Assembly (NCBI GenBank): GCA_034661055.1
Contig: JAYEKO010000015.1
Location: 28,194-92,193, forward strand
DNA: 64,000 nt
Reading direction: 5' to 3'
Source of the DNA: Campylobacterota bacterium
GTDB lineage: Bacteria > Campylobacterota > Campylobacteria > Campylobacterales > Sulfurimonadaceae
Part shown: positions 3,053 to 10,945 of the stretch, piece after piece
How positions within the stretch are numbered: position 1 is the first letter of the stretch
How the letters are laid out: each line of letters opens with the position of its first letter
Notes under the pieces: generated by a model
The model's input: the letters and a program-made list of their open reading frames with translations, nothing else
The model's database searches: none
Told to the model about the DNA's origin: nothing
Made by a program: the position numbers and the translations under genes

Positions 3053-4555
3053 ATGCAGACATTAGACTTCTCTCAATCCATCCTTATCGCTCCAAAAATC
3101 TACTGGATTGGAATGTACCTTGAAAATGACCCCTTCCAGTGTCATCCTTACCTTATTGAAAATGGAAACGAATCTATTTTAGTCGATCCGGGCAGTATGC
3201 TAGAATTTGATGCCGTCGTTAAAAAAGTCAACTCCATTACTAATCTTGGCAATATTAAATACATTATTTTACATCATCAAGACCCTGACCTCTGTGCTTC
3301 GGTTCCTGATTTAGAGAAGCTCATTAATCGAGACGACCTGCAAATTATTACTCACTCTCGTATGACACCACTGATTAAGCACTATTTAACTACCTCTAGC
3401 TATTATGAGATTGATAAACACGAGCTAGAACTTATAACACAAAACGGTTATACGCTAGAGTTTTTAACCACACCATACTGCCACTCTCCTGGTGCTTTTG
3501 TAAGTTATGATCCCGCTAGCAGTGTGTTATTCTCAGGTGATATTTTTGGTGGTATTGATGAGTCATGGGAGTTTTTTGCAAAGGATGACTATTTTGAAAA
3601 GGCCAAACAGTTTCATGCCGAGTATATGCCAAGTAAAGATATCTTTAACTACGCTCTAAAAAAAATCGAAGCCCTTAACTTAGAACTCATCGCACCTCAG
3701 CACGGCTCAATTATTCAAAAACCATACATTTCCGGTTTAATCGCTCAGATGAAAAACTTAGATTGCGGGCTCTATATTGAAGAGAAATACAATAGTGAAC
3801 TCTTAAATACAATTGAAGAACTCAAAGCTAAAGACCTTGCTCTAAAAGAGCGTGAGACCCTGCTGTTTCAGCAGTCTAAAATGGCAGCAATGGGAGAGAT
3901 GATTGGCAATATTGCACACCAGTGGAGACAACCCCTTGCCATTGTCAACACGCTTATTGCCATCTCAAAAGAGAAAAATAATTACGACATGTTGGAAAAA
4001 GATGATCTTACATGTAAATTGGCTGAGATGGAAAAGAATATCGCCTATATGTCCAGCACTATTGAAGACTTTATGGACTTTTTTAAACCAAACAAAGAGA
4101 AACGTCCCTTTAGTGTTCGCAAGGCTGTCACTCAAGCTCTTGAGGTGCTCTATCCAAGCATTAAGAAATATGGAGTTGAGATTAGAGTCAATGGAGACCA
4201 CTCTTTAGTAGTTAACGGCTACATTAATGAGTATATCCAAGCTGTAATATCTATTCTCTCCAATGCAAAAGATGCCCTCATAGAAAATGATGTTACAACG
4301 CCATGTATTACTATCGATTTTTTTATTAACGAAAGTCGTGCCATATTAGAGATTTCAGATAATGCTGGCGGCATTGACAGTAAAATTATAGATCGTATTT
4401 TTGAACCCTATTTTACAACAAAGCATCAATCCATAGGAACAGGCCTAGGGCTCTACATAGCTAAAATGATTATTGAAGGCAGTATGGATGGTAGCATTGA
4501 AGCTAAAAACATTGAAAATGGCGCAAAATTTTGTATAGGAGTTGCACTTGCATAA
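3053..4555 (+). CDS. Soluble sensor histidine kinase with an N-terminal metallo-beta-lactamase / flavodiiron-like (ODP-like) domain
   Basis: N-terminal domain: ILHHQDPDLC, PYCHSPG-x18-SGD and APQHG, matching MBL/di-iron ligand spacing. C-terminal domains: HisKA IAHQWRQPL, then HATPase DNAGGI and GTGLGLYIA. No TM segment seen. Confidence 0.8.
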   Translation: MQTLDFSQSILIAPKIYWIGMYLENDPFQCHPYLIENGNESILVDPGSMLEFDAVVKKVNSITNLGNIKYIILHHQDPDLCASVPDLEKLINRDDLQIITHSRMTPLIKHYLTTSSYYEIDKHELELITQNGYTLEFLTTPYCHSPGAFVSYDPASSVLFSGDIFGGIDESWEFFAKDDYFEKAKQFHAEYMPSKDIFNYALKKIEALNLELIAPQHGSIIQKPYISGLIAQMKNLDCGLYIEEKYNSELLNTIEELKAKDLALKERETLLFQQSKMAAMGEMIGNIAHQWRQPLAIVNTLIAISKEKNNYDMLEKDDLTCKLAEMEKNIAYMSSTIEDFMDFFKPNKEKRPFSVRKAVTQALEVLYPSIKKYGVEIRVNGDHSLVVNGYINEYIQAVISILSNAKDALIENDVTTPCITIDFFINESRAILEISDNAGGIDSKIIDRIFEPYFTTKHQSIGTGLGLYIAKMIIEGSMDGSIEAKNIENGAKFCIGVALA

Positions 4556-5234
4556 AAAAATTGAACACATCTCAGTCTTAATTGCTGAAGATGAAGAGGA
4601 GTTACGAAAATATTTTGTAGAGTATCTACAGATATTTTTTGAGACTGTTTACGCGGCTAGAGATGGAAAAGAAGCACTTAAAATTTACAAAGAGAGACAA
4701 CCTGACATTATAGTTGCTGATATTAACATGCCTAATATGGATGGATTAACACTAATTGAGACAATTCGAAAAGACGACAAAACTACTAAGATGGTTATTG
4801 CTACCGCGCACTCTGAAAAAGACAAACTCCTTCGGGCAATTGAGCTTCATCTTGCACGCTATCTTGTTAAGCCCATCAATAGTGATGAACTAAAAGAGCT
4901 ACTCTTTAGCCTAGTCCAAGAGATTGAAAATGAGAAACGTATTATTTTTCTTAAAGATGGTTACAGATGGGACTTAAAACTTAAAACACTACAAAAAGAC
5001 GGCATGAATGTTCACCTTACCAAAAAAGAGCAGCAACTTCTTGATGTGATGCTAAATCGTCCTAACAGAAGTATTTCAAATGAAGATCTCTATTATACGC
5101 TCTATGCCGATAGCCCTGAAAAAGAGTTCAGCCTCAATGCTATTACCTCTTTAATAAAGCGTCTTCGCACTAAGCTACCTGAAAATACGCTTGATAGCAA
5201 TTATGGCGTAGGTTATATTATTCATACGCAATAG
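4542..5234 (+). CDS. OmpR/PhoB-type response regulator (REC + winged helix)
   Basis: VLIAEDEE...DIIVADINMPNMDG...ATAH..K receiver motifs and a C-terminal LTKKEQQLLDVM...GVGYII winged helix. TTG start overlaps the kinase stop by 14 nt. Confidence 0.85.
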   Translation: MHLHKKIEHISVLIAEDEEELRKYFVEYLQIFFETVYAARDGKEALKIYKERQPDIIVADINMPNMDGLTLIETIRKDDKTTKMVIATAHSEKDKLLRAIELHLARYLVKPINSDELKELLFSLVQEIENEKRIIFLKDGYRWDLKLKTLQKDGMNVHLTKKEQQLLDVMLNRPNRSISNEDLYYTLYADSPEKEFSLNAITSLIKRLRTKLPENTLDSNYGVGYIIHTQ

Positions 5235-5270
5235 GAGAGTAAGTTATATATTTCCTAAAAAGAATTTCAT

Positions 5271-5326
5271 TTTTGACATAATATGACAAACTCTTTTCCT
5301 ACAATTCTCCTGTGTGTGTTATGTCA
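5271..5326. promoter_or_regulatory. Candidate operator: inverted copies of TTTTGACATAA, plus a TGACA-N5-TGACA direct repeat
   Basis: TTTTGACATAA at 5271-5281; its exact reverse complement TTATGTCAAAA at 5319-5329 (extends past this feature's 5326 end); a second TGACA at 5284-5288. A third TGACATAAC at 5487-5495 lies 29 nt before the nrdD ATG. Confidence 0.3.
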
Positions 5327-5419
5327 AAAGTTCAGTTAACCAGAACCTAGATATAAAAGCCTTATGATTCAAAGCATCTGTACTTTTGCAGAGTTATCTA
5401 AAAAGGTTGACTGATTTTT

Positions 5420-5470
5420 AATATACATGTAAAACCTTGCGAGGTCTGCGCGAGGTTTTACATGTATATT
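5420..5470. repeat. 51-nt hairpin: 18-bp perfect inverted repeat, each arm carrying a TACATGTA motif copy
   Basis: AATATACATGTAAAACCT (5420-5437) pairs with AGGTTTTACATGTATATT (5453-5470). The inner GCG/CGC pairs extend the stem. Located in the RR-nrdD intergenic region. Confidence 0.85.
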
Positions 5471-5523
5471 TAGCATAACCACACTCTGACATAACATTCG
5501 TACTTTATCCAATAGGAGAGGCA

Positions 5524-7635
5524 ATGTTAACCACCATACTCAAACGAGACGGCACATCTCAAGACTTTACACCCTACAAGATTGAAGACGCAATACGTAA
5601 AGCGTTTAAAAGCGAATCCACACCTTATGATAATGCAGTTTATGTTGATGTCATTACTACATTAAAAGAACGACGTGTTATAGCAGTTGAAGATGTTCAA
5701 GACCTCATTGAGCAAGCACTTTTTAAAGCACGTTACTTTGATGTTATGAAATCATTTCTACTATATCGCCATACTCACAAAATGCAGAGAGAGCATCAAT
5801 TAGGTTTTAATGAAGACACCACCTACATTAATGCAACGCAGACCATTGAGGAATACATTAGCGGTAGTGACTGGCGTATTAAAGCCAACTCCAACACAGG
5901 CTACTCCAATGCAGGACTTGTCAATAACACCGCAGGAAAAGTCATTGCTAACTACTGGTTAGATAAAGTTTACTCTAAAGAAGAGGGCTATGCCCACCGA
6001 AATGGAGACTACCATATTCATGACTTGGATTGTTTAACGGGTTATTGTGCAGGCTGGAGCTTGCGAGTACTCTTAGATGAGGGTTTTAATGGCGTACGAG
6101 GCAGAGTGGAGTCTAACGCGCCCAACCATTTTCGTGAAGCTTTGGGACAGATGGCAAATTTTTTGGGAATACTTCAAAGTGAGTGGGCGGGAGCACAGGC
6201 ATTTAGCTCATTTGACACCTATTTAGCTCCCTATCTCTTTAAAGATCAACTTGAATATAAAGAGGTAAAAAAAGCGATTCGTAGTTTTATCTACAACCTC
6301 AATGTACCAGCACGCTGGGGGCAGAGTCCTTTTACCAACATTACTATTGACTGGACAGTTCCAAGTGATTTAAAAGAGCAGACCCCAACTCGTAATCAAA
6401 AACACCTTTTTAAAGGTATTGATGATGCAACACTACAGCATCAAGCAGTAGCCCGAGGTGCATCATCACTTGAGTCAATGACGTATGAGCACTTTCAAAA
6501 AGAGATGAATCTCATTAACAGAGCCTATTATGAGATTATGACTGAGGGCGATAAGAGCGGTCAACCTTTTACCTTTCCAATTCCAACTGTAAATATTACG
6601 GAAGATTTTGACTGGCATGGTGAAAATACCGATATTCTCTTTGAAAATACTGCTAAAATCGGCTCATCCTATTTTCAGAATTTTATTGGCTCTCAATTTA
6701 TGAGAAATAATGACGGTAACTTAGTGGAAAATCCAGATGCCTATAAACCAGGACACGTACGCAGTATGTGTTGTCGTCTTCAACTTGATCTTCGTGAGCT
6801 TCTAAAACGAGGTGGCGGACTTTTTGGTAGTGCCGAAATGACAGGAAGTATTGGTGTTGTGACCATTAATATGGCACGACTTGGGTATCTATACGCCAAC
6901 AGTAGAGATGAACTCTTTAAAGAACTTGACCGTCTTATGGGGTTAGCAAAATCAACATTAGAGAAGAAGCGTCTTTTTATAGAGAGCATGTATGAGCGTG
7001 GACTTTTCCCTTATACGGCACGTTATCTTCACCATTTTAACAACCATTTCTCCACCATTGGAGTCAACGGTATTAATGAGATGATTCGAAATTTCACTAA
7101 AGATACGCAAGATATTTCAAGTCGTGAGGGGATGCAGTTTGCCGTAGAGGTACTAGAACACATGAGAGCGCGAATGGTAGAGTTTCAAGAAGCTACAGGA
7201 AATCTTTACAACCTTGAAGCAACCCCGGCTGAGGGAACAACCTACCGTTTTGCCAAAGAAGATCGAAAACGATTTCCATCAATTTTACAGGCAGGTTTTG
7301 GTGAGAATATCTACTACACCAACTCATCACAACTCCCCGCAGACCTCACTGATGACCCATTTGAAGCACTGACACTCCAAGATGAGTTACAGTGTAAATA
7401 TACGGGTGGCACGGTACTGCATATGTACATGAAAGAACGTATCAGCTCCGTAGAGTCTTGCCGAAAGTTAGTTAAAAACATCATTACCAACTTTAGACTG
7501 CCTTACATTACTATTACCCCGCTATTTTCTACATGTGAAAAACATGGGTACTTAGCTGGTGAACACGAGTTCTGTCCAAAATGTGATGAAGAACTTATAC
7601 AATCTTATTTAGAGGAAGAGAAACATGTCTCATAA
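5524..7635 (+). CDS. nrdD: Anaerobic ribonucleoside-triphosphate reductase (class III) large polypeptide, ending after the Zn ribbon
   Basis: N-terminal ATP-cone (ILKRDGTSQDFTPYKIEDAIRKAF), a core typical of NrdD, and a C-terminal CEKHGY...CPKCDEE Zn-ribbon. The glycyl-radical motif is missing from this frame. Confidence 0.9.
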   Translation: MLTTILKRDGTSQDFTPYKIEDAIRKAFKSESTPYDNAVYVDVITTLKERRVIAVEDVQDLIEQALFKARYFDVMKSFLLYRHTHKMQREHQLGFNEDTTYINATQTIEEYISGSDWRIKANSNTGYSNAGLVNNTAGKVIANYWLDKVYSKEEGYAHRNGDYHIHDLDCLTGYCAGWSLRVLLDEGFNGVRGRVESNAPNHFREALGQMANFLGILQSEWAGAQAFSSFDTYLAPYLFKDQLEYKEVKKAIRSFIYNLNVPARWGQSPFTNITIDWTVPSDLKEQTPTRNQKHLFKGIDDATLQHQAVARGASSLESMTYEHFQKEMNLINRAYYEIMTEGDKSGQPFTFPIPTVNITEDFDWHGENTDILFENTAKIGSSYFQNFIGSQFMRNNDGNLVENPDAYKPGHVRSMCCRLQLDLRELLKRGGGLFGSAEMTGSIGVVTINMARLGYLYANSRDELFKELDRLMGLAKSTLEKKRLFIESMYERGLFPYTARYLHHFNNHFSTIGVNGINEMIRNFTKDTQDISSREGMQFAVEVLEHMRARMVEFQEATGNLYNLEATPAEGTTYRFAKEDRKRFPSILQAGFGENIYYTNSSQLPADLTDDPFEALTLQDELQCKYTGGTVLHMYMKERISSVESCRKLVKNIITNFRLPYITITPLFSTCEKHGYLAGEHEFCPKCDEELIQSYLEEEKHVS

Positions 7636-7786
7636 AGAAATATTAAAAAAAGTCCAAGATCAACGAAAACGTTGTGTTGTTTACACTAGAGTTATGGGCT
7701 ATCATAGACCCGTAGAGAGTTTTAACATTGGTAAAAAAGGTGAACACCAAGAGCGTAAACAGTTTAAAGAGAACTGTGCAGCCTAA
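7625..7786 (+). CDS. Separate 53-aa ORF encoding the NrdD glycyl-radical motif
   Basis: Own translation: MSHKEILKKVQDQRKRCVVYTRVMGYHRPVESFNIGKKGEHQERKQFKENCAA. Compare the E. coli NrdD C-terminus RRVCGYLG..FNAGKQEEVKRR. AGAGGAAGAG sits 4 nt upstream of the ATG. The ATG overlaps the nrdD stop (ATGTCTCATAA), and the frame is closed upstream by TAG at 7610-7612. Confidence 0.6.
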   Translation: MSHKEILKKVQDQRKRCVVYTRVMGYHRPVESFNIGKKGEHQERKQFKENCAA

Positions 7787-8456
7787 AAAGCCTCTCTATG
7801 ACATTACACCGTTTAGCACGTTAGATTATCCTGATCATCTTGCAGCTATCTTCTGGTTTGCAGGGTGTAATATGCGGTGTGACTACTGTTATAACGCTAA
7901 TATTGTCTTTAGTAAAGGTTCTCTTAGTGCTGATGATGCGCTAACATTTTTAAAACAGCGAACAGGACTGCTCGATGCAGTCGTACTCTCTGGTGGTGAA
8001 GCAACACTTTTTGAAAACATTATAGAGCTTGCTCAACAGATTAAAGAGCTTGGTTTTAAAATTAAACTTGACACTAACGGAACTGCTCCAAAAGTAGTTG
8101 AGACTCTGCTAAAAAAAGAGCTCATTGATTATATTGCGTTAGACTACAAAGCTCCCAAACAGAAGTTTTCTACTATCACTCATAATCAGCAGTTTACATT
8201 TTTTAATTATACGCTTGAACTTCTCATTAATTCAGAGACTCCATTTGAAGTAAGAACGACACTTCATTCGGATCTATTAAATGAGTGCGATATTAACTCT
8301 ATTATTGAAGATTTATATGCTAAAGGCTATCGAAATAGTTACTATATTCAAAACTTTTTGTATGATGAAAATACTATAGGAAAACTAAGTACTCCAACAA
8401 AAGGTTTTGATAAAAATAGACTGAACTCACTTTTACATGTAGAATTTCGAAACTAA
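7728..8456 (+). CDS. nrdG: Anaerobic RNR activating enzyme (radical SAM)
   Basis: YDITPFSTLDYPDHLAAIFWFAGCNMRCDYCYN (CxxxCxxC) and VVLSGGEATL. The track start is TTG at 7728, but GTG at 7776 is more likely because the first ~16 codons overlap the glycyl-radical ORF. Confidence 0.85.
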   Translation: MVKKVNTKSVNSLKRTVQPKKPLYDITPFSTLDYPDHLAAIFWFAGCNMRCDYCYNANIVFSKGSLSADDALTFLKQRTGLLDAVVLSGGEATLFENIIELAQQIKELGFKIKLDTNGTAPKVVETLLKKELIDYIALDYKAPKQKFSTITHNQQFTFFNYTLELLINSETPFEVRTTLHSDLLNECDINSIIEDLYAKGYRNSYYIQNFLYDENTIGKLSTPTKGFDKNRLNSLLHVEFRN

Positions 8457-8860
8457 AAAGCCAAGCTTATTAAATAGTAACGTCCCACTCTTAACGACCC
8501 AACTACTGCAATAAACCATACCACGTTTAATCTGGCCATACCAGCAACAATAGTCAACGGATCACCAATAATGGGTAAAACAGTAAGGGGTAGTGCTGCA
8601 TAGCCATAACGGTGTACCCAATCTAAAGATATTTTCCCAACCTTTGAAAACTCTAGCTTAGTATGCATTTTTTCATAAAGCCAAAAGCCTAAAAAATAAT
8701 TTACAATAACCGCAAATACATTTCCCAACGAAGCACTAATTAGTGCTAAAACAACATTCATATCAGAGGTTAGTGCAGCAATAAAAGCCGCTTCAGAGCT
8801 AAAAGGAAGAATGGTTGCTGCTAAAAAAGCAGCGAAAAAAAGAGCAGTGGCCTCAACCAT
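8453..8860 (-). CDS. YqaA/DedA-like small membrane protein
   Basis: 135 aa with 4 TM. ILPFSSEAAF...GDPLTIVAG is typical of the YqaA (SNARE-associated/DedA-related) family. Confidence 0.65.
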   Translation of the reverse strand: MVEATALFFAAFLAATILPFSSEAAFIAALTSDMNVVLALISASLGNVFAVIVNYFLGFWLYEKMHTKLEFSKVGKISLDWVHRYGYAALPLTVLPIIGDPLTIVAGMARLNVVWFIAVVGSLRVGRYYLISLAF

Positions 8861-9782: not shown

Positions 9783-10945
9783 TATACGTCTTTTATTTTT
9801 TTAATAAGCTCTTTAGATTGCGCCAAAGCACTCTCAACTTCATCAAACACAAGCGCTACAGCCAATCTACGTCCTACATGGGCTTCTGGTTTTGAGAAGA
9901 CTCTCACATAGCTATTATCGCTAAAGAGTGAATCATCTACTTCTACCACTGGGGCCTGAGAACTCACTTCTGATTTAAAGGCAGCACTCGCACCATCACC
10001 ATAGAATGTAAAGCCTAACGGAAGTCCAAGAACTGCACGAACATGAAGCGCAAACTCACTCTGACTCTGAGTAATGAGTGTTACCATTCCTGTATCGTGT
10101 GGGCGTGGGCTGAGTTCTGAGAAATAGACTTCATCACCACAAACAAACATCTCTACACCAAAAAGGCCACTACCTCCAAGTCCATCAGTTACGGTTTTAG
10201 CCATAACTTGTGCGCGATCTTTTGCAATGTCACTCATCTGCATCGGCTGCCAGCTAAAAACATAGTCTCCATCTTTTTGGATGTGTCCAATAGGCTCACA
10301 AAAGACCGTCTCTTTCTCATTTCGAACCGTTAACAGTGTAATCTCATAGTCAAATTTAATAAAAGCTTCTACAATCAACTCACTAGCATCACCGCGAGCC
10401 TCTTTTGCAATTTCCCATGATGCTGCCAAGTCATCAGTGCTTTTTGCCACACTCTGACCATGACCAGAACTACTCATAACCGGTTTAATAACACAAGGAA
10501 AATCTAATCTATCTGCAGCGCTACAGAGCTCTTCATAAGTAGATACAAACTCATAACCACCTGTTTTAACCCCTAACTCTTCTGCTGCAAAACGTCGAAT
10601 ATTTTTACGGTTCATTGTTTTATTTACCGCTTCAGCATTAGGAATAACATTAAACCCCTCTGCCTCTGCTTTAAAAAGAGCATCTATACTAATGGCTTCA
10701 ATCTCTGGCAGAATATAATCAGGTTTTTCATGACGAATAATCTCTAAAATTGCTTCACAGTCTTGCATATTGACTACATGAGAACGGTTAGCCACTAAAT
10801 GAGCTGGAGCATTTTCATAACGGTCAACTGCGATGACTTCAAGACCGAGACGCTGTGCCTCAATGGCAACCTCTTTTCCAAGCTCTCCTGAGCCTAAAAG
10901 CATAATCCGTTTTGAGTTACTTTTTAATGGTGCTGAAAATTGCAT
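9782..10945 (-). CDS. purT: Formate-dependent phosphoribosylglycinamide formyltransferase (GAR transformylase 2)
   Basis: [34 protein letters not shown] and an ATP-grasp core; length 387 aa. Confidence 0.9.

Follow-up and report, generated by a model that had tools for sequence, protein, structure and literature searches.

To our knowledge, the catalytic chain of glycyl radical enzymes has been described as bearing the radical glycine at its C-terminus, and the GrcA/YfiD proteins are the only known exception to this. GrcA/YfiD of E. coli and its phage version, Y06I of T4, are small stand-alone proteins with a glycine loop, which act in trans on pyruvate formate-lyase and are activated by the radical S-adenosylmethionine (SAM) activase of that enzyme (PMC8683613). 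In the sections of this 2021 study that deal with spare parts, only YfiD and Y06I count as validated, and spare parts of other enzymes are treated as merely possible (PMC8683613). Here, we describe a class III ribonucleotide reductase (RNR) locus in a 64,000-nucleotide stretch of a Campylobacterota genome (assembly GCA_034661055.1, contig JAYEKO010000015.1, positions 28,194 to 92,193 of the forward strand; the whole stretch is referred to as the window). It is highly probable that the catalytic polypeptide of this enzyme is naturally divided into two separately translated proteins, namely a large NrdD subunit and a small protein carrying the glycyl-radical loop. The reading that best accounts for the sequences is that the radical subunit would act in trans within a two-subunit class III reductase.

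The fused enzymes of the NCBIfam family NF006126, such as the one encoded on plasmid pACMV3 of Acidiphilium multivorum, have the ATP-cone, the barrel, the MCCR motif, the CxxH...CxxC zinc ribbon, the TRVMGYHRP loop and an adjacent NrdG in common with the window proteins, to which they are 58-61% identical over the C-terminal 190 residues and the core. In the fused enzymes, the loop follows 2-16 residues past the zinc ribbon on one and the same chain, whereas in the window a stop and a start codon divide a linker of 37 residues.

Gene layout and protein features of the nrdD locus

The nrdD gene for the large subunit (5524..7635; 703 amino acids (aa), 80.7 kDa, isoelectric point (pI) 5.7) is followed on the same, forward strand by the open reading frame (ORF) for the small glycyl-radical subunit (7625..7786; 53 aa, 6.35 kDa, pI 9.9) and by nrdG, which codes for the radical-SAM activase (7776..8456). 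An earlier note on this DNA had claimed that the 703-aa frame ends just past the zinc ribbon and that the radical motif, TRVMGYHRP, lies on a separate 53-codon ORF in the +1 frame, and both claims were borne out when the sequence was reread and compared with protein profiles. The large ORF ends with CEKH (residues 671-674), CPKC (684-687), the acidic tail DEELIQSYLEEEKHVS (7585..7632) and a TAA stop codon, which is reached 16 residues past the zinc ribbon (7534..7584, read from the sequence as C671-x2-H674 ... C684-x2-C687), so that its C-terminal stretch is ...STCEKHGYLAGEHEFCPKCDEELIQSYLEEEKHVS-TAA. The small ORF is translated as MSHKEILKKVQDQRKRCVVYTRVMGYHRPVESFNIGKKGEHQERKQFKENCAA, and its glycine G25, encoded by GGC at 7697..7699, is the predicted glycyl-radical site according to the sequence and the alignments. 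As the ATG of the small gene at 7625 sits within ...AAACATGTCTCATAAA, in the +1 frame relative to nrdD, the two ORFs overlap by 11 nucleotides (nt) (ATGTCTCATAA, 7625..7635), within which the small gene begins and the large gene ends. A TAG at 7610-7612 closes the small frame on the upstream side, and a Shine-Dalgarno-like sequence, AGAGGAAGAG (7611..7620), ends 4 nt before the ATG, with its GAGG core 9-12 nt upstream. The note had listed this Shine-Dalgarno-like sequence, the overlap of ATG and stop and the upstream TAG, all of which are present, and it had also pointed to a long linker: from CPKC to RVMGY, 37 residues are found here, compared to 9 in T. maritima (Thermotoga maritima), whose enzyme is fused, and 2-16 in the majority of fused family members. 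With this layout, the 11-nt overlap is of the kind that serves to couple translation. The end of the small gene is likewise overlapped by 11 nt by nrdG if the latter starts with GTG at 7776, a start that was inferred from homologues beginning about 7 residues ahead of YD(I/L)T(P/S)F; the ORF list has an earlier TTG at 7728. No second copy of the small gene was found within the window.

Both ORFs match class III RNR profiles. The large ORF has Pfam matches to the ATP-cone (E 8.5e-17) and NRDD (PF13597, E 3.5e-162) domains and scores 1094 bits against NF006126 (cut-off 548) and 416 bits against TIGR02487 (cut-off 326), and the small ORF matches Pfam NRDD with an E-value of 7.6e-07. The 562 positions of the NRDD profile are covered from 2 to 532 by the large and from 532 to 562 by the small ORF, and the 684 positions of NF006126 from 2 to 661 and from 649 to 683, respectively. 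The profiles thus place the break exactly between the two parts, and taken together the two genes code for all that is present in a fused NrdD. The ORF ending at 8456 is an NrdG2-type activase (TIGR02495, 190 bits; cut-off 131). The large subunit carries an ATP-cone (residues 4-86), a ten-stranded barrel with the conserved cysteine in GYCAGW (173-178), a finger loop with the motif MCCR (415-418) and a zinc ribbon. The MCCR variant of the finger loop is known from the NrdDh4 group of subclass NrdDh, the redoxin-type enzymes (PMC4493059). The active-site motifs and the zinc ribbon (C572, H575, C585 and C588 in the numbering of alignment A1) show no variation among 23 aligned sequences, and the ribbon lines up with the zinc sites in the NrdD structures of P. 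copri and T. maritima. Whereas the zinc ribbon remains on the large subunit, the glycyl-radical loop (RVxGY) is absent from this chain. With profiles, fold, cysteines, zinc ribbon and a nearby NrdG all in place, a loop on the same polypeptide is the only one of the class III features tested that the large subunit lacks, which would make the small protein an obligatory subunit.

To model the enzyme, the large and small chains were concatenated and submitted to AlphaFold together with an alignment that combined fused with small homologues. The resulting model has a class III RNR fold with a confident core and a mean predicted local distance difference test (pLDDT) score of 71.8, and when it was compared with the PDB by Foldseek, ranks 1-36 were all class III RNRs (S. 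thermophilus, P. copri, T. maritima and T4; best E 6.8e-23). A helix in each half of the linker, with residues 685-698 helical on the large-subunit side, and a hairpin around the glycine are features of low confidence in this model. When the concatenated chains were modelled from the single sequence, the pLDDT was 36.

The small protein consists of a basic N-terminal segment, Cys17, the hairpin YTRVMG25YHRP and a conserved FNIGKKGEH..R..F tail. A Pfam scan of the small ORF up to E = 1 gave no match to Gly_radical (PF01228), and the match to YdfZ stayed below threshold (E 0.062, 14.2 bits; cut-off 27). Residues R14, R22, M24, G25, Y26, R28, P29, N34, G36, K37, E40 and R44 are invariant in the small proteins, and all of these except R14 are also the residues that are invariant in the fused enzymes. 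Gly25 is invariant in all three alignments (A1, A2 and A3) and is aligned with the glycine of RIVGY in T. maritima NrdD. Among 63 distinct coding sequences of the small ORF, the median proportion of differences at nonsynonymous sites (pN) is 0.128, compared to 0.783 at synonymous sites (pS), and the entropy at the three codon positions is 0.39, 0.27 and 1.22, so that third positions vary three to four times as much as first and second ones. The small ORF is under strong purifying selection, with a coding-type pattern, and is no chance ORF. Small proteins of this kind are numerous: a word-indexed search with the small protein gave 5,599 homologues, the best 120 of which are all 49-78 aa long, and an exhaustive search gave 1,213 clusters at 50% identity, with 149 of the best 150 being 49-98 aa long. 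The one exception, a protein of 242 aa (P0251), was considered as a fused fragment and rejected, as the gene had been called out of frame, by read-through, in a genome rich in GC.

The tail of the large subunit, which is specific to split forms and predicted to be helical, is 8-20 residues long and has a net negative charge in 61 of 63 loci, and short-linker fused relatives do not have it. The N-terminal segment of the small subunit has a net positive charge in 58 of the 63 loci. The two oppositely charged segments suggest an electrostatic clasp. Apart from this, Cys17 (7673-7675), eight residues ahead of the radical glycine, is near-invariant in split forms and common in fused ones, a cysteine is found within the last 12 residues in 37 of 63 small subunits, and clusters of cysteines form the end of several phage versions (...KKCCCRK). 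These cysteines may have a role in redox chemistry or metal binding.

The junction in related genomes and in phages

We scanned one genome per species for relatives and obtained 80 loci, in which NrdD is 72-84% identical. These loci belong to the Campylobacterota Sulfurimonas, Sulfurovum, Sulfuricurvum, Arcobacteraceae, Sulfurospirillum, Hydrogenimonas and Campylobacter, the Bacteroidota Flavobacterium, Algoriphagus, Cyclobacterium and Haoranjiania (72-75% identity) and one Limnohabitans metagenome-assembled genome. Both parts are present at 66 loci, including the window and four Campylobacter contigs, with complete genomes and RefSeq plasmids being represented. The earlier note had suggested a comparison of orthologous nrdD genes, and it turned out that nrdD is split at all 66 loci and that no large subunit has a glycine loop. 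The junction itself is variable. The frame of the small gene relative to nrdD is +1 at 40, +2 at 17 and 0 at 9 loci, and the small gene starts anywhere from -32 to +852 nt relative to the nrdD stop. In 23 loci, the parts are separated by gaps of 13-852 nt, and all gaps of at least 78 nt (n=11) contain stop codons in two or all three frames. The context of codon, stop and following base at the end of nrdD occurs in 29 variants without conservation. The small gene starts with ATG in 65 of the 66 loci, and a Shine-Dalgarno-like core is located at -4 to -18 in 51 of them; most Campylobacterota have AAGGAG and most Bacteroidota none. As nrdG lies between -35 and +72 nt from the small gene at every locus, the small gene is linked more tightly to nrdG than to nrdD. 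Two Arcobacteraceae loci, L013 (5094-5919) and L015, have two genes inserted between nrdD and the small gene, one coding for a bacterial proteasome-assembly-chaperone-like protein (PAC_bac, PF21758) and the other for a NifU_N-like protein, and here the small gene stays joined to the front of nrdG.

In about 17 Campylobacter genomes from gut metagenomes (L050, L052, L056, L059-L061, L063, L065, L067-L071, L073-L075 and L078), a split-type large nrdD is present and neither the small gene nor nrdG is found within 3 kb. In one of them (L052), the large subunit ends with ...CPKCDEELLAEFKAQNGAK and is followed by a gene for an FAD-dependent oxidoreductase resembling malate:quinone oxidoreductase. 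The small gene and nrdG of these genomes must be located elsewhere in the genome or be absent. At 15 loci the carriers are Bacteroidota or, in one case, Limnohabitans (L047-L049, L051, L053, L055, L057, L058, L062, L064, L066, L076, L077, L079 and L080); that the same split, at 72-75% identity, is seen in these mostly aerobic Bacteroidota genera and in Limnohabitans points to horizontal transfer of the three-gene unit between phyla.

The split extends beyond these groups. When plasmids were searched by tblastn, two-piece matches were found in 133 Ralstonia solanacearum megaplasmids and also in Bradyrhizobium, Cupriavidus, Paracoccus and Azospira. For Sulfuricurvum kujiense plasmid pSULKU01 the split was confirmed, with the large RefSeq coding sequence (CDS) annotated as 'ribonucleoside triphosphate reductase' and a CDS of 58 aa as 'nrdD', and for R. 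solanacearum OE1-1, where the small CDS is a 'hypothetical protein' that overlaps nrdD by 4 nt. The ORF itself is thus not new to databases, since annotation pipelines already list it. Acidithiobacillus also has the split, as confirmed directly. Cereibacter azotoformans had been taken for fused from a single tblastn piece, which we rejected, as the parts, although in frame 0, are separated by two stop codons. In the passage on NrdDG in the C. metallidurans genome paper, the genes named are Rmet_5137 and Rmet_5139 only (PMC2864759), and the skipped Rmet_5138 is presumably the small gene.

Fused relatives are close by. In the fused A. multivorum pACMV3 gene, the sequence ...HHCPRCAAEEPATIPRACEVWTRVMGYHRPVSSFNIGK... 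is found in one chain, and 117 of the best 120 homologues of the Acidiphilium enzyme, from Burkholderiales, relatives of Desulfovibrio, Actinotalea and others, are fused as well, with CxxC usually being followed by 2-16 residues and then CE(V/I)WTRVMGY (e.g. CPQCAAACEIWTRVMGY). The other 3 of the 120 are split-type large subunits ending with CPKCDAEKLAEKQRSLAA or CPLCDEERLVEKRRRLSA, and genes for 60-62 aa with an NRDD match follow them. One of these three split proteins is 86% identical to the fused Acidiphilium protein (P0270 compared to P0271; L087, L090), and a few fused proteins (P0333 and P0323) have linkers of 25-30 residues that resemble both halves of the junction joined together (CPKCDAERAAEEPLAENRRQACEVWTRVMGY). 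On the metagenome contig L090, a 95-aa ORF of unknown kind, which is not nrdG, follows the small gene (4801-5393), the only such bacterial case seen. In a neighbour-joining tree of the core, the split group of Campylobacterota and Bacteroidota is monophyletic, and its sister is a mostly fused group with three scattered split lineages; parsimony gives at least 4 changes between fused and split from a fused root. Judging from the sequences, there has apparently been more than one event of fusion and fission or of an exchange of the C-terminal module. As the internal branches are very short, what we claim is close kinship of fused and split forms and a labile junction, rather than a number or direction of changes. 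The split is a real and old feature, found in many bacteria and subject to selection.

The small gene is also found on its own on phage and prophage contigs. IMG/VR viral contigs were scanned with the small-subunit alignment, which gave 289 relatives, and the best 80 (within L094-L251) were examined with 10 kb of flanking sequence on each side (1.12 Mb in total), using hmmsearch with the family profile on ORFs of more than 150 aa as the test for NrdD. Every one of these 80 matches is a stand-alone ORF; at 73 loci no NrdD-like ORF of more than 150 aa and at 76 loci no nrdG-like gene was found within 10 kb on either side, a range that leaves room for a more distant nrdD on some of the contigs. 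PHROG scans confirmed a phage setting in five unrelated lineages. In L099, the small gene (3977-4162) lies between tail fibre and holin genes on one side and a gene for an internal virion protein on the other, and in L162 (4001-4171) it follows holin and endolysin genes and precedes an integrase gene. It is located just downstream of the major head protein gene in L194 (~10001-10129), between tail fibre and endolysin genes in L196 (~10001-10147) and downstream of the tape measure protein gene in L210 (~10001-10123). The phage proteins have an intact glycine loop with intact flanks, are encoded on contigs with 24-67% G+C and match PHROG 4132, which is listed as of unknown function. On a few large phage contigs, the large gene, the small gene and nrdG are all present. 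In a tblastn search of GenBank phage isolates with two small-subunit queries, no orphan small gene was found, and the only matches were to the C-terminal parts of phage NrdDs that are fused. The contrast to the bacterial loci, where the small gene is a neighbour of nrdG at all 66, is nevertheless strong. For a small gene travelling on its own to be of use, its product would have to act in trans on a large subunit and with an activase of the host, in parallel to T4 Y06I and pyruvate formate-lyase (PMC8683613). The phage orphan gene is a candidate for a spare or auxiliary subunit of the host enzyme.

Alternative explanations and proposed mechanism

The earlier note had offered four readings of the locus, of which a genuinely split enzyme came first, and this is the one that is supported, by the split at all 66 loci, by the own starts of the small genes and by purifying selection. 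A programmed +1 frameshift at TCA-TAA-A would yield a single NrdD of ~755 aa, with the small ORF not being translated alone. As a requirement for making the enzyme, this is contradicted by the relatives, in which the frame relation varies, 23 loci have gaps, with stops in the 11 longest and whole genes in between in two loci, and small genes are unlinked to the large gene in some genomes and in phages. The small frame is indeed +1 and open across the nrdD stop in the window and in 39 other loci, and a purine-rich stretch is located upstream of the junction; however, the contexts at the stop come in 29 forms, TCA would be unable to re-pair in the +1 frame, and the small genes have kept their ATG and, in most cases, a Shine-Dalgarno sequence at initiation distance. 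A scan of 5000-8600 against Rfam with E-values up to 1 revealed no recoding element and no group I or II intron, the one chance-level match being elsewhere. We consider such a frameshift extremely unlikely. A sequencing or assembly error, by which a one-base indel within 7613-7633 split a single gene, would be conceivable from the window taken by itself, which is derived from a metagenome. Logan contigs from three separate brine-metagenome runs, however, cover 7300-8000 without indels, with these independent assemblies differing from the window by single bases at 7522 and 7868 only, and the same split is found at every locus holding both parts. An error is thereby refuted, its probability being negligible.

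A fresh pseudogene, too, usually presents itself as a truncated catalytic gene with a remnant in another frame behind it, which would here be an nrdD truncated by a frameshift. Decay is hard to reconcile with a small-ORF core that is near-invariant over 63 coding sequences while synonymous sites are near saturation, with a large subunit that is 72-84% identical across phyla and invariant in all catalytic motifs, or with a retained start codon, a retained Shine-Dalgarno sequence and an intact nrdG. A pN/pS ratio near 1, as expected under relaxed selection, is not seen. Purifying selection on both parts and conservation across phyla refute the pseudogene, to which we assign next to no probability. 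A different possibility is that the small protein is a regulator or a decoy substrate of NrdG and that the large protein is inactive or served by another radical source. That the model gives no confident docking of the peptide would be in line with this, and the lone phage copies might be taken for inhibitors of the host enzyme, but the small protein keeps the loop invariants of the fused enzymes, TRVMGY(H/Y)RP...FN.GK.GE, the glycine and its flanks are intact in the phage copies, and the active-site motifs of the large subunit are still invariant although it has no other glycine loop. In addition, nrdDG of C. eutrophus H16 is stated to be essential for complete denitrification in the relevant passage of the genome paper (PMC2864759), and Cupriavidus plasmids give two-piece matches. 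We regard a regulator or decoy as very unlikely.

Some observations weigh against an enzyme that is split and assembled from two proteins, or complicate it. Over residues 600-756 of the AlphaFold model, a range that takes in the zinc ribbon and the small subunit, the pLDDT scores are 35-57, and docking of the hairpin thus finds no support in the modelling and is predicted from homology. The window sequence was sought in RNA runs and found in none of them. In the 40 overlapping +1 loci, occasional frameshifting may give some fused protein. Many carriers of the split enzyme are microaerophiles or denitrifiers, as would suit an oxygen-sensitive part that is cheap to replace, but fused forms occur in facultative aerobes too, for example in Burkholderiales, so that lifestyle is no clean divider of split and fused forms.

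For the split enzyme, we propose the following mechanism. Based on the gene layout, the large nrdD gene, the small gene and nrdG, with their 11-nt overlaps, are probably coupled in translation from one mRNA, and the large and small subunits would be synthesized in roughly equimolar amounts. These two may be held together by the acidic tail of the former and the basic N-terminus of the latter. By homology to the fused enzymes, the small subunit would bind to the large one such that the glycine hairpin enters the barrel beside the finger-loop cysteine, in the way the C-terminus of a fused enzyme does. NrdG would place the radical on Gly25 of the small subunit, from which, as in fused enzymes, it would pass to the finger-loop cysteine. 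According to cryo-electron microscopy of fused enzymes, a high mobility of the glycyl radical domain is required (PMC11226230). One might speculate that a separate small protein is more easily presented to, or reached by, NrdG, and that the oxygen-sensitive, self-cleaving part of the enzyme has been made a cheap 6-kDa protein, which can be replaced without remaking the 81-kDa body. A further-reaching version of this idea is that the 6-kDa protein is an exchangeable and consumable radical cofactor-protein of class III RNR, which is replaced on an intact 81-kDa body after cleavage by O2 at the glycine, and that many phages exploit this with a lone small gene, with neither large subunit nor activase nearby, sustaining the anaerobic deoxyribonucleoside triphosphate supply of the host. 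This version is tentative, and we hold it to be nearly as probable as its opposite.

The region preceding nrdD contains potential regulatory elements. Directly upstream, a sensor kinase is encoded (3053-4555), which combines an ODP domain in its N-terminal half (PF19583, E 1.1e-62) with HisKA/HATPase domains, ODP being a family of oxygen-binding di-iron proteins, and its gene is followed by that of an OmpR-type response regulator (4542-5234). A pair of kinase and regulator flanks nrdD, the small gene and nrdG in many Campylobacterota loci, and the ODP match is seen only in the window and in one other locus (L001). It is plausible that the ODP kinase and its regulator are an oxygen-responsive regulator of the operon. 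Between them and nrdD (5271-5496), we found a 22-nt inverted repeat (5420-5441 and 5449-5470) with arms that are 95% complementary and 7 nt apart, as well as three copies of the motif TGACATAA/TTATGTCA (5271-5281, 5319-5329 and 5487-5496). No Rfam family matched the region 5271-5496. The repeat and the motif copies may represent regulator-binding sites or a leader hairpin.

Significance and comparison with known systems

If the version with an exchangeable radical cofactor-protein is true, no glycyl radical enzyme before this one would have been found to consist naturally of two pieces, with the glycine coming in trans in every case, and the small protein would be the first of its kind, spare part or auxiliary, to serve an enzyme other than pyruvate formate-lyase. 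A natural two-piece system could help to address how an activase reaches a buried glycine and how the loop enters the barrel, as well as how cleavage by oxygen is coped with at oxic-anoxic boundaries, where Campylobacterota, flavobacteria and the denitrifying Ralstonia, Cupriavidus and Paracoccus are concerned. The phage orphan copies (PHROG 4132) would be a new kind of auxiliary metabolic gene, and they make the idea of a detachable subunit directly testable. The split also matters for annotation. The small gene is often a 'hypothetical protein', as in Ralstonia OE1-1, or missed, the large gene can look truncated, and surveys that score NrdD for the glycine motif would misjudge the split clade. 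In the open-access full-text literature, a split of this kind in a class III RNR has apparently not been described.

The earlier note had likened the small protein to GrcA/YfiD. This likeness holds as far as both are small stand-alone carriers of a glycine loop, supplied in trans by GrcA/YfiD and predicted to be so by the small protein, but not for the idea of a spare, as the small protein would be an obligatory subunit, and not for the family, as it is of the NrdD type rather than Pfam Gly_radical. GrcA is homologous to the C-terminus of pyruvate formate-lyase, whereas the homology of the window protein is to NrdD; the enzyme that GrcA repairs normally possesses a loop, which the large subunit of the window never does; and GrcA is ~14 kDa in size with a disordered N-terminal half, compared to 6 kDa for the window protein. 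Homology to NrdD and a target without its own loop place the small protein outside the GrcA/YfiD family (IPR011140).

RNRs in more than one piece have been found before. In NrdJa/NrdJb of Pseudomonas aeruginosa, the catalytic chain is likewise made from two adjacent genes, and a C-terminal functional module resides on the second protein. Unlike the window enzyme, NrdJa/NrdJb is a B12-dependent class II RNR, and its second piece, of ~25 kDa, carries reducing cysteines and not the radical site. The work on NrdJa/NrdJb is reference 43 of PMC9669993. For phages, split RNR genes have been compiled that comprise T4 nrdD with its group I intron, those of Lactococcus phage 949, the intein of Clostridium phage c-st and the fragments of Aeromonas phage phiAS4, and nrdA-a/nrdA-b of Aeh1 is given in the same section as a case in which NrdA works as two polypeptides (PMC3653736). 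These splits are due to introns, inteins, homing endonucleases or recent fragmentation and occur at various places in single phages, whereas the split described here has no intervening element, has a homologous break point in all carriers and is conserved across phyla. Finally, benzylsuccinate synthase-type enzymes have small accessory subunits, which are unrelated iron-sulfur proteins, and their glycine stays on the large subunit. The window enzyme shares with them the combination of small and large subunits, but its glycine is located on the small one.

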